NCBI GenBank assembly: GCA_030390025.1
Contig: CM059440.1
Location: 43,586,001-43,650,000, forward strand
Source: Squalus acanthias
Taxonomy: Eukaryota
Length of the DNA stretch: 64,000 nucleotides
Reading direction: 5' to 3'
In this document: positions 3,735-60,127 of the stretch, in pieces
Position numbering within the stretch: the stretch's first letter is position 1
Layout of the letters: each line of letters starts with the position of its first letter
The notes under the pieces: model-generated
The model's input: the letters and a program-made list of their open reading frames with translations, nothing else
The model's database searches: none
Told to the model about the DNA's origin: nothing
Made by a program: the position numbers and the translations under genes

Positions 3735-3815
3735 ATTAGACAGGGCTTGATGGCCGGCGCGGACACGATGGGCTGAAGGGCCTCTATCCATGCTGTATAA
3801 CTCTGTGACTCTATG

Positions 3816-4430
3816 TTCACACTGCCGTACTCACCGTGCTAATCACTACTAACACTGCCGTACTCACCGTGCTAATCACTGTTCACACTGCCGTACTCAC
3901 CGTGCTAATCACTGTTCACACTGCCGTACTCACCGTGCTAATCACTACTAACACTGCCGTACTCACCGTGCTAATCACTACTAACACTGCCGTACTCACC
4001 GTGCTAATCACTACTAACACTGCCGTACTCACCGTGCTAATCACTGTTCACACTGCCGTACTCACCGTGCTAATCACTGTTCACACTGCCGTACTCACCG
4101 TGCTAATCACTACTAACACTGCCGTACTCACCGTGCTAATCACTACTAACACTGCCGTACTCACCGTGCTAATCACTACTAACACTGCCGTACTCACCGT
4201 GCTAATCACTGTTCACACTGCCGTACTCACCGTGCTAATCACTACTAACACTGCCGTACTCACCGTGCTAATCACTACTAACACTGCCGTACTTACCGTG
4301 CTAATCACTAACACTGCCGTACTCACCGTGCTAATCACTGTTCACACTGCCGTATTCACCGTGCTAATCACTGTTCACACTGCCGTACTCACCACGCTAA
4401 TCACCGTGCTAATCCCTACCAACACTGCCG
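3816..4430. repeat. 33-bp minisatellite, ~18 copies, two unit variants
   Basis: Unit ACTGCCGTACTCACCGTGCTAATCACT followed by ACTAAC or GTTCAC. Confidence 0.95.
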
Positions 4431-5970
4431 TTGCTATGGGAACCCACATGGGTCCTAGCTATGCCTGTCTTTTCATGGGATATGTGGAACACTCTTTGTT
4501 CCAGTCCTACTCGGGTCCCCTCCCTCACCTCTTTTTCCGGTACATTGATGACTGTATCGGTGCTGTTTCCTGCTCTCGCCCTGAACTAGATAATTTCATT
4601 CACGATGCTTCCAATTTCCACCCTTCCCTCACCTTCACATAGTCCATCTCCGACTCTTCCCTTCCCTTCCTCGACTTCTCTGTCTCCATTTCTGGAGATA
4701 GGCTATCGACCAACATTCACTATAAGTCCACTGACTCCCACAGCTACCTGAACTACACTTCCTCCCAGCCCGCCTCCTGTAAGGACTCTATTCCATTCTC
4801 CCAGTTTCTCCGTCTCCGCCGCATCTGCTCTGACGATGCCACCTTCCATACCAGTGCTTCCGACATGTCTTCCTTTTTCCTCAACCAAGGATTCCCCTCT
4901 ACTGTGGTTGACACGACCCTTGACTGTGTCCGTTCTATCTCCCGCACTTCTGCTCTCACCCCTGCCCCTCCCTCCCGGAACCACGATAGGGTTCCACTTG
5001 TCCTCACCTTTCACCCCACCAGCCTCCACATTCAACGGATCATCCTCCGCCATTTCCGCCACCTCCAGCGTGATCCCACCACCACACACATCTTCCCCTC
5101 CCCTCCCCTTTCAGCATTCCGTAGGGACCGCTCCCTCCGCGACACCCTAGTCCACTCCTCAATCACCCGCAACACCCCTTCCCCTGGCACCTTCCCGTGC
5201 AAGCACAGGAGATGCAACACATGCCCTTATACCTCCCCCCTTCTCACTATCCAGAGCCCCAAACATCCCTTCCAGGAGAAACAGCGATTTACTTGTACTT
5301 CTTGCAATTTAGTATACTGTATTCGCTGCTCATGATGTGGTCTCCTCTACATTGGGGAGACCAAACGCAGATTGGGTGACCGCTTTGCGGAACATCTCCG
5401 TTCAGTCCGCAAGGGTGACCTCGAGCTTCCGGTCGCATGTCACTTTAATTCTCCGCTCCACTCCCACTCAGACCTCTCCGTCCTCGGCCTCTTACACTGT
5501 TCCAACGAAGCTCAACGTAAGGTCGAGGAACAGCACCTCATCTTTCGATTAGGCACTTTACAGCCTTCTGGACTCAACATCGAGTTCAACAATTTCAGAC
5601 TATAACCTTGGCCCCTGTATTTCTTTATATTTTTTTCTCTTGTTTTCTCACATGGTAGTTGTTAATGTTGCTGCCATCATCATTCACACATCATCTCGAG
5701 CCATCTTTTGTTTCTTAACTTGTCCCATTACCTCTCCTTTTGCCTCGCACCATCATCCCTTTTGTCATTCAATCTCTCCTGCCTTCCATCCTATCACAGA
5801 CCTTCCCTTTGTTCTTTCCTCCCTCCTCCCTGCCCCTGCTTAAAAATTACTCTTCTCTAATCTTTTCCAGTTCTGACGAAGGGTCCCTGACCTGAAACGT
5901 TGACTGTTTCTCTCTCAATGCTGCCTTACCTGCTGAGTGTTTCCAGCATTGTCTGTCGTTATTTCAGATT
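4429..5970 (+). mobile_element. 5'-truncated Penelope-like retroelement (RT C-terminal part + GIY-YIG endonuclease), decayed
   Basis: VAMGTHMGPSYACLFM and FRYIDD (RT); C-x2-C, LVYCIRCS*CGLLYIGETKRRLGDRFAEH and GLN (GIY-YIG). In-frame stops at ~4640 and ~5333. The 3' region carries a hammerhead motif. Confidence 0.92.
5868..5906 (+). ncRNA. Minimal type I hammerhead ribozyme motif in the Penelope 3' region
   Basis: CAGTT-CTGACGA-AGGGTC CCT GACCT-GAAA-CG-TT-GACTG. Stem I is CAGUU/GACUG, both core boxes are present, and stem III is the palindrome ACGU. Confidence 0.75.
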
Positions 5971-6506: not shown

Positions 6507-6590
6507 CTCCTTGAACATGACCTCGAAGGACTGGGTCTCCCTCGGCTGCAGCTGGTGATTGTGGTAGCTCACCAGGGTGATGTCATTACC
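6507..6590 (-). CDS. HSPG2: Perlecan exon (L4 domain): GNDITLVSYHNHQLQPRETQSFEVMFKE
   Basis: 84 nt, phase 0-0, acceptor gatctttcag, donor gtaaag. Resembles human perlecan GNNIMLVASQ...RRSYEIMFRE (recalled). Confidence 0.93.
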
Positions 6591-9974: not shown

Positions 9975-10067
9975 GATGATCTGCACGTCAGCGTCTGGTA
10001 CCGTGGAACCCCGGAACCCTGCATCGTAGGAGAGCGTGTACCGAAGGAGTCCACCGTAAGAAGTCAC
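9975..10067 (-). CDS. HSPG2: Perlecan exon (L4 domain): VTSYGGLLRYTLSYDAGFRGSTVPDADVQII
   Basis: 93 nt, phase 0-0, acceptor ttcttttgcacag, donor gtaagt. Carries the L4 signature SYGG.LRY. Confidence 0.95.
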
Positions 10068-13135: not shown

Positions 13136-16100
13136 GACACCATCCTCATCAACACCAGACACCATCCTCATCGACATCAGACACCACCATCCTCATCAAC
13201 ACCAGACACCATCCTCATCGACACCAGACACCATCCTCATCAACACCAGACACCACCATCCTCATCAACACCAGACACCATCCTCATCGACACCAGACAC
13301 CATCCTCATCGACACCAGACACCATCCTCATCAACACCAGACACCATCCTCATCGACATCAGACACCACCATCCTCATCAACACCAGACACCATCCTCAT
13401 CGACATCAGACACCACCATCCTCATCAACACCAGACACCATCCTCATCAACACCAGACACCATCCTCATCAACACCAGACACCACCATCCTCATCAACAC
13501 CAGACACCATCCTCATCAACACCAGACACCATCCTCATCAACACCAGACACCATCCTCATCAACACCAGACAACACCATCCTCATCAACACCAGACAACA
13601 CCATCCTCATCAACACCAGACAACACCATCCTCATCAACACCAGACAACACCATCCTCATCAACACCAGACACCATCCTCATCAACACCAGACACCATCC
13701 TCATCAACACCAGACACCATCCTCATCAACACCAGACAACACCATCCTCATCAACACCAGACACCATCCTCATCGACACCAGACACCATCCTCATCGACA
13801 CCAGACACCATCCTCATCGACACCAGACACCATCCTCATCGACACCAGACACCATCCTCATCGACACCAGACACCATCCTCATCGACACCAGACACCATC
13901 CTCATCGACACCAGACACCATCCTCATCGACACCAGACAACACCATCCTCATCGACACCAGACACCATCCTCATCAACACCAGACACCATCCTCATCAAC
14001 ACCAGACACCATCCTCATCAACACCAGACACCACCATCCTCATCTACACCAGACACCACCATCCTCATCTACACCAGACACCACCATCCTCATCAACACC
14101 AGACACCATCCTCATCAACACCAGACAACACCATCCTCATCAACACCAGACAACACCATCCTCATCAACACCAGACAACACCATCCTCATCAACACCAGA
14201 CACCATCCTCATCAACACCAGACACCATCCTCATCAACACCAGACAACACCATCCTCATCAACACCAGACAACACCATCCTCATCAACACCAGACAACAC
14301 CATCCTCATCAACACCAGACACCATCCTCATCAACACCAGACAACACCATCCTCATCAACACCAGACACCATCCTCATCGACACCAGACACCACCATCCT
14401 CATCGACACCAGACACCACCATCCTCATCGACACCAGACACCATCCTCATCGACACCAGACACCATCCTCATCGACACCAGACACCATCCTCATCGACAC
14501 CAGACACCATCCTCATCGACACCAGACACCATCCTCATCGACACCAGACACCACCCTCATCAACACCAGACACCATCCTCATCAACACCAGACACCATCC
14601 TCATCAACACCAGACACCATCCTCATCAACACCAGACACCATCCTCATCAACACCAGACACCATCCTCATCAACACCAGACAACACCATCCTCATCGACA
14701 CCAAACACCATCCTCATCAAAACCAGACAACACCATCCTCATCAACATCAGACACCATCCTCATCGACACCAGACACCATCCTCATCAACACCAGACACC
14801 ATCCTCATCAACACCAGACACCATCCTCATCAACACCAGACACCATCCTCATCAACACCAGACAACACCATCCTCATCAACACCAGACAACACCATCCTC
14901 ATCAACACCAGACAACACCATCCTCATCAACACCAGACACCATCCTCATCAACACCAGACACCATCCTCATCTACACCAGACAACACCATCCTCATCTAC
15001 ACCAGACAACACCATCCTCATCTACACCAGACAACACCATCCTCATCAACATCAGACACCATCCTCATCAACACCAGACACCATCCTCATCAACATCAGA
15101 CACCATCCTCATCTACACCAGACAACACCATCCTCATCTACACCAGACAACACCATCCTCATCTACACCAGACAACACCATCCTCATCTACACCAGACAA
15201 CACCATCCTCATCTACACCAGACAACACCATCCTCATCTACATCAGACAACATCCTCATCAACACCAGACACCATCCTCATCAACATCAGGCACCATCCT
15301 CATCTACACCAGACAACACCCTCATCTACATCAGACAACACCATCCTCATCTACATCAGACAACACCATCCTCATCGACACCAGACACCATCCTCATCGA
15401 CACCAGACACCATCCTCATCGACACCAGACACCATCCTCATCGACACCAGACACCATCCTCATCGACACCAGACACCACCCTCATCAACACCAGACACCA
15501 TCCTCATCAACACCAGACACCATCCTCATCAACACCAGACACCATCCTCATCAACACCAGACACCATCCTCATCAACACCAGACACCATCCTCATCAACA
15601 CCAGACAACACCATCCTCATCGACACCAAACACCATCCTCATCAAAACCAGACAACACCATCCTCATCAACATCAGACACCATCCTCATCGACACCAGAC
15701 ACCATCCTCATCAACACCAGACACCATCCTCATCAACACCAGACACCATCCTCATCAACACCAGACACCATCCTCATCAACACCAGACAACACCATCCTC
15801 ATCAACACCAGACAACACCATCCTCATCAACACCAGACAACACCATCCTCATCAACACCAGACACCATCCTCATCAACACCAGACACCATCCTCATCTAC
15901 ACCAGACAACACCATCCTCATCTACACCAGACAACACCATCCTCATCAACATCAGACACCATCCTCATCAACATCAGACACCATCCTCATCTACACCAGA
16001 CAACACCATCCTCATCTACACCAGACAACACCATCCTCATCTACACCAGACAACACCATCCTCATCTACACCAGACAACACCATCCTCATCTACATCAGA

Positions 16101-19100
16101 CAACATCCTCATCAACACCAGACACCATCCTCATCAACATCAGGCACCATCCTCATCTACACCAGACAACACCCTCATCTACATCAGACAACACCATCCT
16201 CATCTACATCAGACAACACCATCCTCATCAACACCAGACACCATCCTCATCAACACCAGACACCATCCTCATCAACACCAGACAACACCATCCTCATCAA
16301 CACCAGACACCATCCTCATCAACATCAGACACCATCCTCATCAACACCAGACAACACCATCCTCATCAACACCAGACAACACCATCCTCATCAACACCAG
16401 ACACCATCCTCATCAACACCAGACAACACCATCCTCATCAACGCCAGACACCATCCTCATCAACACCAGACACCACCATCCTCATCGACACCACACACCA
16501 CCATCCTCATCGACACCAGACACCATCCTCATCGACACCAGACACCATCCTCATCGACACCAGACACCATCCTCATCGACACCAGACACCATCCTCATCG
16601 ACACCAGACACCATCCTCATCGACACCAGACACCACCCTCATCGACACCAGACACCATCCTCATCAACACCAGACACCATCCTCATCAACACCAGACACC
16701 ATCCTCATCAACACCAGACACCATCCTCATCAACACCAGACACCATCCTCATCGACACCAAACACCATCCTCATCAAAACCAGACAACACCATCCTCATC
16801 AACATCAGACACCATCCTCATCGACACCAGACACCATCCTCATCAACACCAGACACCATCCTCATCAACACCAGACACCATCCTCATCAACACCAGACAC
16901 CATCCTCATCAACACCAGACAACACCATCCTCATCAACACCAGACAACACCATCCTCATCAACACCAGACAACACCATCCTCATCAACACCAGACACCAT
17001 CCTCATCAACACCAGACACCATCCTCATCAACACCAGACAACACCATCCTCATCAACACCAGACAACACCATCCTCATCAATACCAGACACCATCCTCAT
17101 CAACACCAGACACCATCCTCATCTACACCAGACAACACCATCCTCATCTACACCAGACAACACCATCCTCATCTACACCAGACAACACCATCCTCATCAA
17201 CATCAGACACCATCCTCATCAACACCAGACACCATCCTCATCAACATCAGACACCATCCTCATCTACACCAGACAACACCATCCTCATCTACACCAGACA
17301 ACACCATCCTCATCTACACCAGACAACACCATCCTCATCTACACCAGACAACACCATCCTCATCTACACCAGACAACACCATCCTCATCTACATCAGACA
17401 ACATCCTCATCAACACCAGACACCATCCTCATCAACATCAGGCACCATCCTCATCTACACCAGACAACACCCTCATCTACATCAGACAACACCATCCTCA
17501 TCTACATCAGACAACACCATCCTCATCAACACCAGACACCATCCTCATCAACACCAGACAACACCCTCATCAACACCAGACAACACCATCCTCATCTACA
17601 TCAGACAACACCATCCTCATCAACACCAGACAACACCATCCTCATCAACACCAGACAACACCATCCTCATCAACACCAGACACCATCCTCATCAACACCA
17701 GACACCATCCTCATCAACACCAGACACCATCCTCATCAACACCAGACACCATCCTCATCAACACCAGACACCATCCTCATCAACACCAGACAACACCATC
17801 CTCATCCACATCAGACACCATCCTCATCGACACCAGACAACACCATCCTCATCGACATCAGACAACACCATCCTCATCCACATCAGACACCATCCTCATC
17901 AACACCAGACACCATCCTCATCAACATCAGACACCATCCTCATCAACACCAGACACCATCCTCATCAACATCAGACACCATCCTCATCAACACCAGACAC
18001 CATCCTCATCTACACCAGACAACACCATCCTCATCTACACCAGACAACACCATCCTCATCTACACCAGACAACACCATCCTCATCTACACCAGACAACAC
18101 CATCCTCATCTACACCAGACAACACCATCCTCATCTACACCAGACAACACCATCCTCATCTACACCAGACAACACCATCCTCATCTACACCAGACAACAC
18201 CATCCTCATCTACATCAGACAACATCCTCATCAACATCAGACACCATCCTCATCAACACCAGACACCATCCTCATCTACACCAGACAACACCATCCTCAT
18301 CTACATCAGACAACACCATCCTCATCAACACCAGACACCATCCTCATCAACACCAGACACCATCCTCATCAACACCAGACACCATCCTCATCTACATCAG
18401 ACAACACCATCCTCATCAACACCAGACACCATCCTCATCTACACCAGACAACACCATCCTCATCAACACCAGACACCATCCTCATCAACACCAGACACCA
18501 TCCTCATCAACACCAGACAACACCATCCTCATCAACACCAGACAACACCATCCTCATCTACATCAGACAACACCATCCTCATCTACATCAGACAACACCA
18601 TCCTCATCGACATCAGACAACACCATCCTCATCTACATCAGACAACACCATCCTCATCTACATCAGACAACACCATCCTCATCTACATCAGACAACACCA
18701 TCCTCATCTACATCAGACAACACCATCCTCATCTACATCAGACAACACCATCCTCATCTACATCAGACAACACCATCCTCATCTACATCAGACAACACCA
18801 TCCTCATCTACATCAGACACCATCCTCATCTACATCAGACAACACCATCCTCATCTACATCAGACAACACCATCCTCATCTACATCAGACAACACCATCC
18901 TCATCTACATCAGACAACACCATCCTCATCTACATCAGGCAACACCACCCTCATCTACATCAGACAACACCATCCTCATCTACATCAGACAACACCATCC
19001 TCATCTACATCAGACACCATCTCCTCATCTACATCAGACAACACCATCCTCATCTACATCAGACAACACCATCCTCATCTACACCAGACAACACCATCCT

Positions 19101-19390
19101 CATCTACATCAGACACCATCCTCATCGACATCAGACAACACCATCCTCATCTACATCAGACACCACCATCCTCATCGACATCAGACACCACCATCCTCAT
19201 CTACATCAGACAACACCATCCTCATCTACATCAGACAACACCATCCTCATCTACACCAGACAACACCATCCTCATCTACACCAGACAACACCATCCTCAT
19301 CCACATCAGACAACACCATCCTCATCTACATCAGACGACACCATCCTCATCTACATCAGACACCATCCTCATCTGCATCAGGCACCACCA
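13136..19390. repeat. ~6.25-kb minisatellite of 22/25-bp units
   Basis: Unit ACACCATCCTCATC(A/G/T)ACA(C/T)CAG with an optional 3-nt insertion. The + strand is C/A-rich and has no stop codons. Confidence 0.98.
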
Positions 19391-19489
19391 AAGCTGGCTT
19401 AGTACCGACAAACCTACTTCAGTTCTTGGTTGAAGATCCTGTAAGGAGGACTTGCATGGGTCAAAATAGTGGCCACGTGCCAAGACAGA

Positions 19490-19611
19490 GGGAGTCATTT
19501 TAACTAAACCCCGGGTCAGCCGCAACTTTACACTCCAACTCTCCGCTGACTTCAATCGGGCCGGGTGTGTCCGTCAGTTTCCCGCTGGCGGGTTAAGCTA
19601 AAATGACCCCC
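19490..19611. mobile_element. Small MITE-like element with imperfect ~22-bp terminal inverted repeats
   Basis: GGGAGTCATTTTAACTAAACCC ... GGGTTAAGCTAAAATGACCCCC. No clear TSD. Confidence 0.5.
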
Positions 19612-20007
19612 ACTGCCTCAATGGATAAAGACATGAAATGAAACATGTTCTTGACAAACTTCCTTAATGGAGGCTTCTGGTCAACACTTCACTCTGGTGC
19701 TGCCATTGACCAATGATGGTCTTCTGGGTGAAGCTGTACCTGAAGAGCTTGGTAACTGAACCAATGAAGAGAATTGAAAAGTTGCACTGATTTTTTCAGC
19801 AGTACCAGAGGATCTGCTGTGAGAGCCAGAGGCCTCCAACACTTTCTCCCCCAGCCATAGAGCGTAGACCGACCAAAACAAATATACAAAGACACCGTCA
19901 TGTTAAATTAAAAACACGCACATAACTCATAACGGCTGGAATTATTATCCAAACTACAAACGTGCCAATATATGGTTTCTAATTCAGTACTTGATAACAC
20001 TGGTTAC

Positions 20008-20091
20008 CTTGTTCCCCAGGTACTGGTGAGGCAGTCGCCAATAGAAATTGTTTTCAGGTAGGAGGCTGAAGCCCTTGTAAAGCAGAGCATA
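20008..20091 (-). CDS. HSPG2: Candidate alternative perlecan exon: YALLYKGFSLLPENNFYWRLPHQYLGNK (second copy of an L4 segment)
   Basis: 84 nt, phase 0-0, strong acceptor cctcttttcctatcccag, donor AAG/gtaacc. FYWRLP..YLGNK parallels YYWQLP..FQGDK in the 36-kb exon. Confidence 0.88.
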
Positions 20092-20395
20092 CTGGGATAG
20101 GAAAAGAGGCAGACACAAGATGAACAGAGAAAGTAAACACAGAGCAACAGTCAATGGCACATTCAAGGACATGCTTTGAAATTCCTTCCCCAGCATTGTT
20201 TCAGGAAGCAGTGCCCCCCATTCCCTGCCGATGAAACACACACGAGAGTTTCATAGAATTATTAGAAAATGCAGGGCCTTTTTAAAGCTACCAAATTATT
20301 ATAGTATATCAGAAGTTCAGTATCTTCAGTAAAGCCACATTATTCAGCAAAGGAAATACTGAACTGAGCACAAGATTAATTCAATGCCAAGAACA

Positions 20396-20500
20396 CAAGT
20401 TCTGATGAAGGGTCATCGACCTGAAATGTTGACTCTGTTTCTCTCTCCACAGATGCTGCCTGACCTGCTGAGTGTCTCCAGCATTTTCTGTTTTTATTGC
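20396..20500 (+). mobile_element. Penelope-derived terminal fragment with a hammerhead-like motif
   Basis: AGTT-CTGATGA-AGGGTCATCGACCT-GAAA-TG-TT-GACT, similar to 5868-5970. Confidence 0.75.
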
Positions 20501-22336
20501 AAGATTAATTTACCACTTTCTACCCTTTGTGGTCAGCTTAGTGTTGGACATGCACAGAAACCCAGCGATAAGCTCGAGAGTCTCCAAGCCGAACTACTGA
20601 GAGCTGTAAACTGGTCGAGTTTCTATGTGCCGGATACGGAATGCACAGCCCACTTACTGAAGCCTCGGTGCAGATTGGCAAGACCAAAGAAGCCCGGGTT
20701 GGGACTTTAGCTCAAAGCTCACAAAGTCTTCCTGCAGAGCTGTGGAAACTTTCCCACTGCTTGTCCTCCCAGGTCCTTCCTGTCCAATAGGGTATGAGGT
20801 GGTGGGACGACCTGGAGTTGAGCAGAAAGATTCCCAGCCTCCATCGAGGGCCCTGTCTCATTTTACAAATGATGGCTTTAAGAATCCAGGATATGGATAG
20901 CTTGTTGGATAAGAATAAAAGCAGATGCCAACAAGCTTCTTGTGTGGTAATCGGGATGATGAAAGATGGAAAACACTTTTCTGCCTGGTCTAAAAAATGT
21001 ATTTTTTCTGAATGGAGACCGCCCCAGGTTCTAAACATGGGTGGTGAAAGGTCACTTGGAAAAATGGTTCACTTTATTTCCCCAATTTCTCCTCCTTTTC
21101 AAATATCTTCTCATCTCTCTGCAATTTCCCAGGCTTCTGAAATCCAGGCTATTTATTATTCTAAAGTACAGTGAAAATTAACCGAAGGAGGAAATATTCC
21201 TGCCACTTACTGTGGCAATTAGAAATCGCAAGGCATGGACTGATCTTTAATCACAATTAAAGGAGTTCCCCATCTCTTTCGAAGCAGCCAGGAACTTTCA
21301 CTAAAACCGTCGCTGGGATTTTCCACTGGCAGAAACCTGGCAAACATTCCAGAGTCAACCTCATTCTTGTTAAGTTTGGCAGGCTTCCGGCAGAATTCCC
21401 ACCTGTGGCGGGGACCCCAGCGAGAAGGGGAGGTGTGACGATGTTGCAGGCCTCAGGGGCGAGTGGGGCTGCTGAATAGGAGGTCAACTTGTTTTTATGA
21501 TTTTTTTTTTTTTCTACAGGACTGGGGAAATCCAGTTAGGTTTCTTGGCTGTGCTCCATTTCCTTGCTGAAAAGCTGCCTGAAACCACCGTACCTCCTTC
21601 AGGGAACCAATAAAATGTAAATCTCCCCCTGCCTGCCAAACCAATGCTGGAATCCAATTACACCAACTGGCCTGCCTTCCATCCAGCGCTGTCAGGGCGA
21701 ACGATGGAAAATGTGATGCCCGACATCAATCCGTCATTACCACGCAATTTGAAGACGCCCGCCACATTAGGGCGGACACACCCGACAGCCAATATTATTT
21801 CCAACGGGAAGCCCTGGAAGAGACGGTGACCAGCGGAACATCTCCCGCACTCAGAACAGTTAACAGAAGAAGTGGTGTAGCAGGTCCCCTTCTCAAGGGT
21901 GTCACCCCAACTCAGTGGCTAATGAGTGCCCTCTTTCAATGATTCACAAATGGCACGGGGCAAACAGGACATCTCAAGTCCAAACATGCACTTCAGAGCC
22001 AATCACAACAAAGCCGCACACATATTAGTTCCAACTAAAACTCAAACCAAATGGGATAAAGATAAGTATAGCCAGCAGGGGATTTATCACCATGCTAAAA
22101 CCTCATGCAGAACGGCCTACATTTTGCAGTGATCTCAAGTTACTTTCTACATTATCTTACTTTGCACGCAAACATGCTGCTTTGTTGAATTTTTTAAAAT
22201 TATTTTGGGTCAGTTTACAAGGTGAATTGCGACAACAACCCACGATTGCAGGCACTTCGAAGAGTTGAGAAACTCTTGTTGACTGGGAATCTTGCCCAAA
22301 GGTCTTGAATTTGTAATCCAACAAGCAGCTTTCTGA

Positions 22337-22565
22337 TACAAAAGCAAAACTCTGCGGATGCTGGAAATCGGAATAAAACCAGACAAAGCTGGAAATACTC
22401 AGCGGGTCAGGCAGCATTTGTGGAGAGAGAAACAGAGTCAACGTTTCAGATCAATGACCCTTCGTCAGAACTGGAAAAAGGTCATCGACTGGAACCGTTG
22501 ACTCTGTTTCTCTCTCCATAGATGCTGCCTGAGCTGCTGAGTGTTTCCAGCATTTTCTGTTCTTT
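22337..22565. mobile_element. Inverted pair of Penelope terminal fragments
   Basis: A minus-strand copy (hammerhead core at ~22436-22472) is followed by a plus-strand copy of the same 3' sequence. Confidence 0.75.
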
Positions 22566-23166
22566 GGCAGCTTTCTGAAGTCATTCACATCCAAGACATG
22601 CACAAGGTCACGGAGATACTAGAATATTCCATGCACAAGCTAACCACGGCTACCTTCTCAAGGCCAGCAGGCCTTGGGCCCAACATGGAGGAAGAAATTA
22701 GGTTTGATGAGTCCTGAGCTTGCAGTGAAGGGACCCGAGGAATCTTTCTCATCTGTACGTACATGCAGAGAAAATCAATACTTAATTTCATCAATTTATA
22801 ATGGAACTGGTTTAAAAAAATGCAAATCCCCACCTCCAAACTGAGAATAACACCATGGACATTGTTTTTAAACTCCCAACCTCCTCCCTTCCCATCATGA
22901 CTCAGACACTTACACTAGCCTTCACAGTGGCTGCTCTTGTCCAAGTGATCACTCATGTGTGTGAGCCAGGACAGGGACGTTCCACAATCAATAGGACGAG
23001 GGAGGCCCAACATGAAATCCTCTGCAGCTGCCCAATTTCCAGTACAAGTAGGAGAAATCTACCCGGCTTTCCCCCCTCCCCAGACAGATGTTGCTCTGCC
23101 TGATGAAAGCACATATTCAAGATGGCGAGTAGGTAAACCCAGAGCCTTCGTGTCCTGCATCACTCC

Positions 23167-23759: not shown

Positions 23760-25770
23760 ACTGGCACATGTAATCCTAACATTCACCACCAGATCTGGCT
23801 GGACCACGTAAAGCACTGTCGGGTCTTGCTCTCGTCTGCCAAAATTGCTCACTATTCCAGAATCATTTTGGAATGCAAAGATAAACCCCAGCTTCTTTTC
23901 TCCATTGCTAACCGTCTTCTTAAACCCCTCTCCCGACAACAAGCGTGAGGAGCTCATGGACTTCTTTGTCTCTAAGATTGAGACCATCCGTTCAGCTGCC
24001 TTTGCCACTTCCCTTCCTTCCCCTAGCCCACCGGGGCAAACTTCCTCTAAGGTTCCCCCCTGCCCTAGTCCTGAACTCACATCTTTCTCCAGTTTCGCTC
24101 CGATCTCCCCTCATGACCTCTCCGCACTCATCATGTCCATGAGACCCACTTTCTGCTCCCTCGACCCTATTCCCACTAAACTGACCACCCAACTTCCTTT
24201 TCTGGCTCCCATGTTAACTGATATTGTTAACGGTTCTCTCTCCTCAGGTACTGTCCCCCTCTCCCTCAAATCTGCTATCATCACCCCTCTCCTCAAAAAA
24301 ACAACCCTTGACCCCTCCGTCCTTGCAAACTACCGCCCCATCTCCAACCCCCCTTTCCTCTCCAAAGTCTTTGAACGTGTTGTCGCCTCCCAAATCCGTG
24401 TCCATCTTTCTCGCAACTCCTGTTTGAATCCCTCCAATCAGGTTTCTGCCCCTGCCACAGTACCAAAACGGCTCTCATTAAAGTCACAAATGACATCCTC
24501 TGTGACTGTGACAAAGGTAAACTATCCCTCCTTGTCCTTCTCGACCTGTCTGCAGCCTTTGACACGGTTGACCACTCCATCCTCCTCCAACGCCTCTCCA
24601 CCATCGTCCAGCTGGGTGGGACAGCACTCGCCTGGTTCCATTCTCATCTATCTAATCGTAGCCAGAAAATCACCTGCAATGACTTCTCTTCCCACTCCCA
24701 CATCGTTACCTCTGGTGTCCCCGAAGGAGGTATCCTTGGCCCCCTCCTATTTCTCATCTACATACTGCCCCTTGGAGACATCATCCAGAAAACACAGCGT
24801 CAGTTCCTACATGTACGCTGACGACACCCAGCTCTACCTCACCACTACTTCTCTCGATCCCTCCACGGTTTCTAAATTGTCAGACTGATTGTCCAATATC
24901 CAGTACTGGATGAGCAGAAATTTTCTCCAATTAAACATTGGGAAGACTGAAGCCGTTGTTTTCGGTCCCCGCCACAAACTCTGTTCCCTTGCCACTGACT
25001 CCATCCCTCTCCCTAACATCTGTCTGAGGCTGAACCACACTGTTCGCAATCTTGGCATCATATTTGACCCTGAAATGAGCTTCCGACCACATATTCATGG
25101 CATAACTAAGACCGCCTATTTCCACCTCCGTAACATCGCCCGTCTCCGCCCTTGCCTCAGCTCATCTGCTGCTGAAACCCTCATCCATGCCTTTGTTACC
25201 TCTAGACTTGACTATTCCAACGCACTCCAGGCTGGCCTCCCACATTCTACCCTACGTAAACTTGAGGTCATCCAAAACTCGGCTGCCCGTGTCCTAACTC
25301 GCACCAAATCCCGTTCACCCATCGCTCCTGTGCTCGCTGACCTACATTGGCTCCCGGTTAAGCAACGCCTCGATTTCAAAATTCTCATCCTTGTTTTCAA
25401 ATCCCTCCATGGCCTCGTCCCTCCCTATCTCTGTAATCTCCTCCAGCCCCGCAACCCCCCCCCACACCCCCTGAGATATCTGCGCTCCTCTAATTCTGCC
25501 CTCTTGAGCATCTCTGATGATAATCGCTCCACCATTGGTGGCCGTGCCTTCTGTTGCCTAGGCCCTAAACTCTGGAATCCCTTCCCTAAACCTCTCCGCC
25601 TCCCTAACTCTCTCTCCTCCTTTAAGATGCTCCTTAAAACCTACCTCTTTGACCAAGCTTTTGGTCATCTGCCTTAATTTCTCCTTATGTGGCTCGGTGT
25701 CAAATTTTCTGTTTTATAATACTCCTGTGCAGCGCCTTAGGACGTTTTACTACGTTAAAGGCGCTATATT
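23760..25770 (+). mobile_element. L2 LINE, 5'-truncated, with frameshifted RT
   Basis: LDPIPT, NYRPISN, YADDTQLY, SRLDYSN and LHWLPV motifs; tail AAAGGCGCTATAT. Confidence 0.92.
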
Positions 25771-28059: not shown

Positions 28060-28362
28060 CTTTGTGTGGTGGCCGGGATGAGAAAGCAGAGATGAGGGGC
28101 GAGAAGAACGGGAAGTAGCGGTTCTTGAAGAGGAAGAGGAGGGTATGGAATGAGATGATGTATTGCGAGAGGCAGAGGGAGCAGGAGGTCCAGCAGGACT
28201 TGCTGAGGCCAGTCGAGACAATGGATAGGATGGCTGGGACAGATTCCTACCACCGGGTGAGGTGGGATTGTGTGATTCGCGCAACTGCTCAGCAGTAAAG
28301 CCAGTTATAATCGCCCATATCTCGTCATCTATACGCTTCTGCTCTTCCAGATCAGGCACAGA
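28060..28362 (-). CDS. HSPG2: Candidate alternative perlecan exon, 101 aa: SVPDLEEQKRIDDEIWAIITGFTAEQLRE...Ser/Pro-rich...HHTK
   Basis: 303 nt, open, phase 0-0, acceptor ccttcacttccttgtag, donor AAG/gtatgg. Confidence 0.75.
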
Positions 28363-30217: not shown

Positions 30218-30319
30218 CTTTGAGGATCGTTTAGCCCTAGGAAGAGATGACGTTGAGCCCAAGAGTTCCCAGATGGCCGCATCCTTCCTCAGCTGGTCCT
30301 CAGTCAAAGACGGGTCTTT
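30218..30319 (-). CDS. HSPG2: Candidate alternative perlecan exon: KDPSLTEDQLRKDAAIWELLGSTSSLPRAKRSSK
   Basis: 102 nt, phase 0-0, acceptor gcattcattag (weak), donor AAG/gtagca. Shares a motif with the 28-kb exon; TGCATG lies just downstream. Confidence 0.68.
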
Positions 30320-34215: not shown

Positions 34216-34254
34216 CTTGTGTCCACGTCTAATACGAGCAAAGAATTGCTCCCT
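34216..34254 (-). CDS. HSPG2: Candidate alternative perlecan microexon: REQFFARIRRGHK
   Basis: 39 nt, phase 0-0, strong acceptor ttattccctttcttcag, donor AAG/gtagag. Confidence 0.62.
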
Positions 34255-36145: not shown

Positions 36146-36340
36146 CTTGTCTCCCTGAAATGCCTCTGGAAGCTGCCAGTAGTAGGACTCCTGGGTGTAC
36201 TGCCCAAACCGGTCGAACGAGAGCTGTGGCTGCCTCTCCCTCACCGTCACGGTGAATCCCGAGGTGATGCGGGTAGTGCGCTGACGATTCACCAGCGAAA
36301 AGTTTTGGAAGTTGCTCGGTGGAACGAATGGACTCGCAAC
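36146..36340 (-). CDS. HSPG2: Perlecan exon (start of third L4 domain): VASPFVPPSNFQNFSLVNRQRTTRITSGF...SYYWQLPEAFQGDK
   Basis: 195 nt, phase 0-0, acceptor catttctgtag, donor gtacag. Resembles human FQGFALVNPQR...SFYWQLPETYQGDK (recalled). Confidence 0.96.
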
Positions 36341-38224: not shown

Positions 38225-38365
38225 CAGCTTCCTGTAGTACGAGGAGCTGCTGCATTGATGCGTCACTCCCATACAGAAACACGGCAGGCATCCCTCTCTG
38301 CTCTCTGCACTCAGGTCGAAGTAACCGGCTTTGCAAGTGTCGCAGGTCTGGCCTTCCACATTAGG
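38225..38365 (-). CDS. HSPG2: Perlecan exon (laminin EGF): PNVEGQTCDTCKAGYFDLSAESREGCLPCFCMGVTHQCSSSSYYRKL
   Basis: 141 nt, phase 0-0, acceptor ttttgattacag, donor gtacgt. Contains the perlecan motif GCLPCFCMG.T..C. Confidence 0.96.
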
Positions 38366-42652: not shown

Positions 42653-43499
42653 AATAATCCTCTGCGACTATTAATTTTTCTACTGAATTTTGATACATGG
42701 ATACCAGTGCCTCTGCTCTCTCCTCTTCAAGTTCTTTTGAGTATCAATGGGTCCATCAATCCATCTGGATCTGTCATGTGGTCCTCAAGTTTCATTTCAT
42801 TTCAGCTGCTAGAGAAGGTGGAATTAAAAGTAGTAGTAATGACCACCATTAGGTTTTGAGACTTACTAGTGCAACGCTGTCCATATATGGGATTCCCAGA
42901 GTAACCTGGAGCACACCTGTAACAAGTATTACAAACAGAGATTAGAAATGGCTCTTCAAACAGGACCCAAAAGTGTTTGCATATGAACCTTTTTTGAGCC
43001 CACTGACTAGGGTCAGTTTATAGTGGAATTTAATTCTGATTCATTGTCTGCAGGGTGACTATTCTTTACCCTCAGTTACGTTAACACCTCAGTAGCAGTG
43101 GATCAAGACATGATTCAGCCTCCATTCGCCAGTAAAATGATTATGAATCAATGGAAAGGCAGCTGAAAAAGAACCCACCTTCTGGCAAATCTTTACAACG
43201 CTGCGTCCAAAGAAGTGACACAAATTTGCGTTCCCGGAATGAGAAATCGTGACTGTGGTAAAAGCCAAGTCCTCGGACACAAAAGGTGAACTGCCCCTGC
43301 AGGTGCCTCCCTCCTGCCTGAATCCCTCCTGATGAAATTGGTCTTTAGGAGATTCACCAACGCTATTGTCCAGCTGTGCAAAAGTTACTTCCTAAAAAAT
43401 TCCAGATGGGTTTTGAACGTGCTGTGGTAAGTACAGATGTAAGTACAGGTGTACCCCAGTTAGAGGGTGCAACCATTGCACACACAGAGCTGTGACTAT

Positions 43500-58075: not shown

Positions 58076-60127
58076 CTGTCAGATTTCTTTTCAAAGGATT
58101 AAAGGTCGTGGTCAGCAAACAAAAAACATCTTTTCTTTCTTTAAAGAAATATTGAACATGGAATTTGACAATTTGGCCTCCGATTGGCAGCCAGTTGGTT
58201 AGTTTAAAATCGGTTTCATTTTAGGCAGGTTTCTTTGAGCTGTTTTACTTGAGCACAAAGACTGGGTGGTGAAAACTCTATCGTTGACAACAATAGACAT
58301 GTTTCAGCCAAGTAGTTTTTTTGTATGTACATTACTTGTGTGTCAGTGTGGAAAGGCTTCACGCAACAACCTGCAATGCCCGCAAGCCCTGACCAACAAG
58401 TAGCCCCAGGTTAGTGAGCAGGTTAGTGACCAGCAGAAGCAGAGCAGCAAGAGCTTGATTAGGCAGCGATTAAAAGCAAAAGCCCCAGACTAGTCTGTGC
58501 ATGAAGGCCAGTTATTAATCCTGCAGCAAAATCTCCTCCCACCTGCTCCTCACCTCAATGCAACCCTCCAAAAGTTACTACCATCCCAAAAACAAACTCT
58601 CATCCTGAATCTTACTACATTTTGCAGGCTGTCGTAAGCTGGAAAGCAAACTGAGCTCTCAGGCACGTGGAAGGCAGCACTTGAAAGAATACCAGCCGGC
58701 TCGAACGTCATTGATTTGTAAACAGGTAATTCAAAACAACCCAATCACAACTTGAAACAAACAGAAGCAGCAACTGGAGAGTGCGAAGGCTGGGACCTGG
58801 AGACTCTCCTCCATTCACCAGCGGCTTTGTACCACTAACTTGGCAACTTGGCCTATTCCAAGAGTGTATATTTCTCATCTCAATAGAGCTGACCATCCAA
58901 TTGCAAGGTAATGAATAAAAAGCACAACATATACAGCGAGTTTTTCCACTTCAACTGATCAGTCGATTTTACATAGTGTTACGAAGACTGCCTGAAATCT
59001 CTCCCATTATTATAAATCAGGCTTTGAAGACAAAGCCCATTTTCCAGTTGATTTGGACGAAGGTGTCAGCTGTAGTGAGGATTAAACTGCTAACAAAGGA
59101 CTGACTGGAGTCTGTCCTGAGGGTTAACAGTGCAGACAGGTCAGACTCTTCACTTGTACAGATTGTCTCCTCGACACAATACAGCCGGGCTTTCCCTTCA
59201 CTCGGTGCAAACTCCCCAGACACGGTGGTAAAAACAGAAACATGCGCAACACATCTGGATGTTATAATGGGAGAGCTAGGGTATGAGAAGGATGAGCTAC
59301 AATGGGTGGAATGGTTTTTTTTCCATATCCTTTGACTTTTTGTGCATATATATGAAAAGTACCTCTTTAACTTCGCAAATGATTGATGCTGGGAGCACCA
59401 CTTTCTCCATTCTTGACCAGTGAGAACAGGTGCAATTGAAAGAAATATTTCGACCACTGTCCTACCAAAGGTATTAAATAATCATTCGAGAAGTGTGGGC
59501 AGATACCAACACATGACAAGAAAAAGAACACGAACCACACACACACGGTGCTAGCGGCTCAACTAAAGCTAACGGAGGGTCTCCATCCCTGCTGAGCCGC
59601 TCCATTGATGCAGATCACCGAATGTCCAGCAGCAGCTCCACTGGGGGGGAGGGGGGCAATTTCAAAGCACCCTCAAGCCCTCCAACCCAGGGTCGGCAAT
59701 CTGTAGTTGGGGAATAGACCTTTGCAATGGAGCCACTCTGGGACACCTTCCCTTACTTGGCGTCACCAGGGCAGCCCAACAGGGAGACTATGAGGCGTGA
59801 CTTGAGGGTCTAACAGCGACTGCCAAACGGTCGTCCAAGGAAAAAAAATACAAGTACATTTCAGGTGAGTTTATCATAACTGGGGAGATCACTTTTAACA
59901 GGACCACTCCCTCAAGACTTTCCTATGCCTTTTAAAAAAGATTGATGTTTTATTGATTCCTCAACCTTTGTCTCTGCGTTAGGTACTTAAATAGATTTTT
60001 TTTTTTTAAAACAGCGAGGGCAGCATGCCGCAGCTAGTATTTCTACATCCATCAGTTTCTACACTCTGCCCGGTGAGGTGCCACAGCTTTTGGCCATATA
60101 GTACAGAGTAAGCATTATAATCGTGAC

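Follow-up and report, generated by a model that had tools for sequence, protein, structure and literature searches.

Why would a gene keep, on an exon of its own, a second copy of a 28-residue segment of one of its folded domains? The question is raised by an 84-nucleotide exon, here named X, in the 64,000-nucleotide stretch of DNA that we analysed (the window). A preliminary description of this DNA had proposed two uses for X: to supply replacement strands with which a C-terminal cleavage product could still fold an L4 domain, or to serve a short transcript from an internal promoter.

Exon X and its host gene

Perlecan is indispensable for cartilage, muscle and basement membranes. Judged by its sequence, the window is part of domain III of the perlecan gene (HSPG2) of a cartilaginous fish, and X and its canonical counterpart belong to the third L4 domain (L4-3). 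Named perlecans run colinear with the window in tblastn, and the order and sequence of the LE-LE-L4-3 exons match perlecan domain III. Five shark and ray proteins are 85-92% identical to the canonical exon, against 66% for chimaera, and a PDB sequence search returned the perlecan region 3 entries 9I5A/9I5B, of mouse type. A word-index protein search using just the canonical exon yielded 3 candidates, all of which failed to pass. The exons of the domain are, in the order of the gene:

38225..38365, minus strand: LE exon upstream of L4-3, with the first three cysteines of the LE domain hosting L4
36146..36340, minus strand: canonical first L4-3 exon, phase 0/0, 65 aa, of which the last 28 have a second copy in X and the first 37 do not
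20091-20008, minus strand: exon X, 84 nt, 28 aa, phase 0/0; last exon of the cassette described below
9975..10067, minus strand: next L4-3 exon (VTSYGG...), 31 aa; its acceptor serves the canonical exon and X alike
6507..6590, minus strand: following L4-3 exon (GNDITL...), 28 aa

The X peptide is a second copy of the L4-3 segment and ends in W-x-L-P-x4-G-x-K. As the preliminary description had claimed, the copy sits on an exon of its own, which lies on the minus strand, bordered by a pyrimidine-rich AG acceptor and a GT donor. By approximate splice-site weights, the acceptor is among the best 0.3% of the 4340 minus-strand AG sites of the window, and the donor among the best 2% of its 4552 minus-strand GT sites. 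A plus-strand reading of 20008..20091 was discarded, as its frame contains a stop codon and the motif is missing.

The alignment of X to the last 28 residues of exon 36340-36146 is indeed free of gaps, with 8/28 identities and a BLOSUM62 score of 48. This is the top non-self score among the 127,828 six-frame 28-codon positions of the window (runner-up, 22), and pairwise BLASTP of the two 28-mers gives an E of 1e-5. The protein has been kept while the DNA has diverged, again as described: nucleotide identity is 36/84 (14, 16 and 6 of 28 at codon positions 1, 2 and 3), and different codons are used at 6 of the 8 residues common to both copies. Phase 0/0 is common to all three exons concerned, canonical, X and VTSYGG (10067-9975), so that both copies can be spliced to VTSYGG in the phase foreseen. 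Against Pfam Laminin_B, the stop-to-stop ORF holding X matches positions 1-15 with an E of 0.0082 and 16.4 bits, under the 22.4 cut-off; with an L4 profile built without vertebrate L4-3, X scores 26.8 bits and the canonical 28-mer 32.1 bits.

X closes an optional cassette

Four spacer exons, absent from the preliminary description, lie between the two segment copies. We located them using P0002, P0005 and P0008, proteins interrupted after G-D-K by an insert whose end resembles X, which came from a profile-free search of 1.84 billion representative sequences (64 matches):

34216..34254, minus strand: E1, 13 aa, phase 0/0; basic helix, furin-type motif R-I-R-R
30218..30319, minus strand: E2, 34 aa, phase 0/0; helix, then furin-type motif R-A-K-R
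28060..28362, minus strand: E3, 101 aa, phase 0/0; conserved D-x-E-I-W helix, then Ser/Pro-rich disordered tract
22654..22752, minus strand: E4, 33 aa, phase 0/0; disordered in the model (pLDDT <50)

X thus closes an optional five-exon cassette in which all exons are phase 0/0 and which totals 209 aa, counted here as E1-E4 plus X, the insert length also of the Chiloscyllium, Stegostoma and Mustelus RefSeq isoforms. E4 is 53-71% identical to four shark and skate isoforms and 41% identical over a longer stretch in P0107; no chimaera counterpart was among the matches listed, and none is apparent in therian inserts. E3 gave no usable ESM Atlas match. The E2 helix resembles the E3 helix (R-x-D-x-x-I-W), E2 being the second match for the E3 probe (30319-30218 versus 28362-28300), and the spacer may contain an older internal duplication.

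In order to survey the use of the cassette, we assembled isoforms, which are computational gene models with many per species, by searches with full-length perlecans (the best 120 of 486 matches, and another 34) and by cluster look-ups. The isoforms came from chimaera, sharks, skates, bichir, gar, sturgeon, teleosts, coelacanth and amphibians, and on the amniote side from turtles, lizards, ostrich and opossum as well as placentals, slow loris and rat among them; the matches listed included no human sequence. Alignment-based parsing assigned 264 of 272 proteins, 69 without an insert and 195 with one. The insert ends in X in all 195 (97 distinct X 28-mers). E1-E4 are skipped in varied combinations, where E3 labels cannot be relied on in fishes, E2 having a similar motif, and X is never skipped. 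A spacer accompanies X in 187 of the 195; the inserts of the other eight models, from frog, turtles, sturgeon and teleosts, consist of X only. The canonical exon co-occurs with X in 195/195 X-bearing isoforms, under a parse that required the canonical exon. XP_072442898, XP_031762630 and XP_053776217 are examples of RefSeq HSPG2 models with the five-exon insert ending in X.

Eight of the 272 proteins were dropped, four of them without the region. P0004 and P0180 have a spacer without X, and because their next constitutive L4 exons are missing too we treated them as gapped models. P0203 and P0205 have X without the canonical exon, whose N-terminal strands are missing too, and look mis-built.

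An in-frame GT donor at 36245 (minus strand) lies within the canonical exon, immediately ahead of the duplicated segment, and outscores the real donor (8.1 versus 5.0). If used, it would make X nearly mutually exclusive with the canonical segment; no isoform of that form was found among the models examined, and this route was set aside.

Age and conservation of X

Column conservation in an alignment of 47 sequences is 0.74 for X and 0.76 for the canonical copy, compared with 0.73 for E1, 0.48 for E2 and 0.37 for E3 and E4. X is intact, rather than disrupted, in gene models from chimaera to placentals, and the X of the window is identical (28/28) to the corresponding segment of skate isoform P0092. 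X copies share on average 18.5/28 residues with each other, 11.2/28 with canonical L4-3 segments and 11.6/28 with L4-2 segments. Because X copies are alike across lineages, and less so to the canonical or L4-2 segments, the duplicate predates the split of sharks and bony fishes. The earlier proposal of an old partial exon duplication under selection therefore holds: the second copy is real, ancient and under selection.

In a tree of the 28 columns, canonical L4-3 segments (support 81) and L4-2 segments (85) form clades and X does not. As donors of X, the L4-3 and L4-2 segments appear equally close, and the order of events cannot be fixed by the tree. Compared with the L4 segments of eight more distant, invertebrate-type proteins, X shares 10.7/28 residues and the canonical L4-3 copy 8.9/28; the canonical copy may be the more derived of the two.

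Each of the two copies, X and canonical, retains signature residues of its own, and they share only about 11/28. Together with the eight X-only models, this would suit a role in which X mainly alters the surface of L4-3, as the equivalent of a mutually exclusive exon that works by displacement in the protein, the spacer being secondary. We consider such a role distinctly unlikely, given that a spacer is also present in 187 of the 195 insert-bearing isoforms and that the spacer helices and motifs are themselves conserved.

Predicted fold with X in place

Since an insert-bearing product contains both segments, the predictions concern which of them would occupy the domain. In the AlphaFold2 model of a skate cassette isoform, X lies inside the sandwich (strands 263-268 and 278-281, pLDDT 83-89), while the canonical copy (58-85) is without a strand (blocks at 41-62, residues 57-72 with pLDDT <50). 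The first strands of the canonical exon (residues 31-50) have a pLDDT of 92, and E1, E2 and E3 contribute one helix each (85-99, 105-121 and 137-157, pLDDT about 69-78). Foldseek matched this model to perlecan L4-2 (9I5A/9I5B; E 3e-19 for 9I5B) and to laminin alpha2 L4b (4YEP). In the model, then, the antiparallel beta-sandwich of the L4 fold is attained with X in place. Scored with an independent L4 profile (36 L4 segments, vertebrate L4-3 left out), the canonical product obtained 121.2 bits, the X-swapped product 116.1 bits and a product with neither segment 66.8 bits.

We also ran ESMFold2, without an alignment, on the would-be cleavage products as two chains (N-piece 1-95 and C-piece 130-445). 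The pair scored 0.84 against 0.21 for the best control, beyond a mark passed by 51/78 solved versus 2/108 mismatched microbial pairs (39/65 versus 2/126 for eukaryotes). At least 62% of contacts agree among the two-chain runs, with a partner pLDDT of at least 56. Residues 278-283 of X pair with the N-terminal strand 34-39, which also touches 376-379. The interface names residues 56-61, which include the start of the canonical copy, and does not name 62-95. Because the two pieces are halves of a domain with solved homologues, this pass shows likeness and register, in the model, and not binding. The predictors may favour X merely for its contiguity with VTSYGG and the rest of the domain. As regards the replacement strands proposed earlier, AlphaFold2, ESMFold2 and the profile agree that X would supply strands of L4; the purpose assigned to them, a C-terminal product that folds by itself, is the part that was not supported, as explained below.

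Proposed role of X

With moderate confidence, we favour the explanation that X is a fold-repair exon, replacing the 28 residues that are displaced upon insertion in an L4-3 intron, and that the resulting loop is probably cut in non-therians. X would be the exon that has to close an alternatively spliced cassette within perlecan L4-3, as its coupling to the insert in predicted isoforms indicates. The sole intron available for an insert would be the one after G-D-K of the canonical exon, within the folded domain, and we infer that this junction tolerates an insert poorly. When the spacer is included, X would come after it and, as modelled, stand in for the canonical 28 residues within the beta-sandwich. 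Of the canonical exon, the first 37 residues would remain in the fold, and the displaced 28 would exit together with E1-E4 as one loop of 209 aa, containing three helices, the Ser/Pro-rich tract and two furin-type motifs. This loop would probably be cut in the secretory pathway of non-therian jawed vertebrates, leaving a nicked L4 of two chains that strand complementation and a disulfide between LE Cys2 and Cys4 hold together, with X locked in.

Furin-type motifs and the fate of the loop

The consensus of furin and related proprotein convertases is R-X-[KR]-R. The window cassette has two such motifs, in E1 and E2, and X is C-terminal to both. Among distinct spacers holding E1, the E1 motif is present in 71/75 non-therian and 19/24 therian ones; the E2 motif is present in 55/61 non-therian and 0/23 therian distinct spacers holding E2, the looser R-X-X-R being kept in 14/23 of the latter, in groups that were themselves assigned by motif. 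As background, the Ser/Pro tract has 3 matches in 9002 aa. In the skate model, the E2 motif falls in a low-pLDDT linker (122-134) and the E1 motif within helix 85-99. The flanks of the E2 motif are variable, in line with the exon conservation of 0.48, and small or polar residues follow it. This pattern of arginines kept amid variable neighbours suggests a convertase site. The E1 motif is less telling, because E1 is conserved as a whole helix (0.73), which may account for its arginines in some other way. Furin-type motifs are missing from some placentals (marmot, dog, loris, otter, and whale in one isoform), and several placentals have lost the E1 motif and keep X; since they do, and since X-only isoforms are without a motif, X cannot exist only for cleavage.

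The same segment swap could also take place with the loop left uncut, the three helices forming an intact binding module on a Ser/Pro-rich stalk and the R-X-X-R sequences being incidental. The helices are predicted with intermediate pLDDT (about 69-78) and would make up a module of a basic E1 helix and a D-x-E-I-W helix; E1 is conserved as a block, and therians retain the E1-E3 helices and X while the strict motifs decay. We nevertheless regard an uncut loop as unlikely, since the E2 motif persists in 55/61 non-therian spacers despite its variable flanks and is followed by small or polar residues.

A further step beyond the fold-repair explanation is a splice-encoded, protease-locked segment swap, in which convertase cuts would make the displacement irreversible and would expose or release the helical module. 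The product would be a nicked perlecan with an altered L4-3 surface, kept since the jawed-vertebrate ancestor and overlooked in mammals. We put this forward tentatively, as a possibility that we doubt more than we believe.

The C-terminal piece

The preliminary description had X enable the C-terminal product of cleavage to fold an L4 domain. For such a product to separate and fold alone, the position of X after both furin-type motifs is appropriate, and from the C-terminal piece of the bamboo shark protein AlphaFold2 still assembles most of the sandwich, with a core mean of about 79 versus about 90. However, residues with a pLDDT of at least 90 went from 109 to 21 (a different shark was the query here than for the full isoform), and the first half of X (residues 141-147) fell to a pLDDT <50. 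The first 37 residues of the canonical exon, which are not duplicated, supply the strand (34-39) that sits between X and another core strand (376-379). E4 was tried as a stand-in for the missing N-terminal strands and rejected, for it leaves the missing profile positions uncovered (97.7 versus 97.9 bits).

The cysteines of the LE domain also argue against separation. LE disulfides pair 1-3, 2-4, 5-6 and 7-8, and the available text of PMC6744579 states that the L4 insertion leaves this pattern intact. With three LE cysteines encoded upstream of L4, the 2-4 disulfide of this pattern would span L4, bridge the cut and keep the pieces linked. Given the need for an unduplicated strand, the drop in pLDDT, this disulfide and the eight X-only isoforms without a motif, we hold it very unlikely that X serves a C-terminal product folding on its own; a nicked two-chain L4 fits better than a released one.

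RNA data and the internal promoter

Contigs from 4 of 9 listed sequencing runs were aligned to 19450-23100, where two short copies of a repeat (about 20400-20500 and 22330-22560) account for most of the depth. Contigs of this kind do not reveal transcript starts. Among the contigs listed for these runs and this interval, none has a splice joint or loose end at X. The sole contig over X that was guessed to be RNA (20036-20247) crosses the acceptor unspliced into the intron, at a depth like that of other intronic contigs.

This contig, spanning the acceptor, is one of the points in favour of a short transcript from an internal promoter, in which X would follow a signal-peptide-like leader encoded in the intron. 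An in-frame ATG at 20172 and a hydrophobic run (20172-20092, minus strand) lie directly upstream of X, and the run is the most hydrophobic upstream stretch of the 9 exons compared. But the run is probably the polypyrimidine tract of the acceptor, 3 of the 9 exons have an in-frame upstream stretch containing Met, and in one contig of a related organism (run X7, depth 5.9) a 2-nt deletion at 20102 would break the frame of the leader. Besides, none of 330 retrieved proteins begins at X, and the product would be without the N-terminal L4 strands and the LE cysteines. This second use proposed for X thus finds little support, and we judge it extremely unlikely.

Other features of the window

Several further features of the locus were recorded. 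An intronic stretch at 37942-37862 (minus strand) matches five cartilaginous-fish perlecans weakly (E 2e-4 to 9e-3) near the start of the canonical L4-3 exon, and may be a further partial copy or a match of low complexity. A 6.2-kb tandem array (13137-19373) of about 267 copies of a 22-25-nt unit lies in the intron between X and the VTSYGG exon; its plus strand is open for 2191 codons. The plus-strand frames 814-2223, 3809-5602 and 23812-25674 resemble pieces of retroelements, which we take to be of the endonuclease/reverse-transcriptase kind.

An open frame of 768 codons (58220-55917, minus strand), ending in a stop, lies in the intron that precedes the LE exon at 42916, and a weak phase-2 acceptor at 58086 would carry perlecan into it. 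The middle of the frame is heptad-like, its tail is rich in Lys, Thr and Ser, and a 14-aa repeat occurs in it in 8.4 copies. Among the perlecan-related proteins compared with the window its sole match is P0148, an electric-eel perlecan gene model, in the corresponding position (27% over 225 aa, pairwise E 8e-16). It gave no Pfam match, and residues 120-280 gave no usable ESM Atlas match. The frame is a candidate for a conserved alternative terminal exon that would yield a truncated perlecan.

Comparison with known systems

The cassette exons are already in RefSeq predictions and are therefore not new to databases. The predicted HSPG2 "isoform X" models, automatic and with a plain protein name, have the same five-exon insert ending in X; in their annotations we saw neither the duplicate nor the motifs nor a mechanism described. 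In its available portions, a review treats vertebrate HSPG2 as having few characterised splice variants and names miniperl and mast-cell domain I/V fragments, with the cassette not among them (PMC6266596). Our search covered the available text of open-access literature on perlecan/HSPG2 and on the mechanism, subscription journals and supplementary exon tables (e.g. PMC5740500, PMC6886504) being outside its scope, and returned no description of the cassette. Such a description is likewise missing from the available text of PMC6266596, PMC4859157, PMC6744579, PMC10589900, PMC9010944, PMC5740500, PMC10214146 and bioRxiv 10.1101/2022.11.16.516790.

The function of the L4 domain is stated to be unknown in the accessible part of PMC6744579. 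A cassette in L4-3 from chimaera to placentals would offer a direct test of that function, with one domain presenting two surfaces, with or without a loop. As candidate coding exons, its parts would be called intronic by variant screens on the canonical transcript. The arrangement also suggests a design rule, namely that a partial exon duplicate admits a large insert into a folded domain at a fold-internal intron.

Perlecan L4-2 (9I5A/9I5B) and laminin alpha2 L4b (4YEP/4YEQ) share family (PF00052) and fold with L4-3, but these solved domains have a single copy of the segment and no insert. Glypicans, as presented in the available text of PMC4859157, are furin-nicked, disulfide-linked two-chain proteoglycans, and like the cassette have a convertase motif within a disulfide-bridged region; here the motifs alone point to cleavage. 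Agrin, in the same text, is a basement-membrane proteoglycan with splice-regulated, Ser/Thr/Pro-rich inserts resembling the spacer-bearing cassette. Unlike the cassette, neither is described there as having a duplicated replacement segment. The duplicate itself recalls the mutually exclusive exons that arise by tandem duplication (Hatje et al. 2017, PMC5740500): by the available text of that study, these too are homologous exons in the same frame, in a neighbouring intron, encoding an equivalent structural segment. X differs from them in being 84 rather than 195 nt long and in being spliced in together with the canonical exon. Exclusion of the canonical segment by X thus happens, if at all, in the folded protein.
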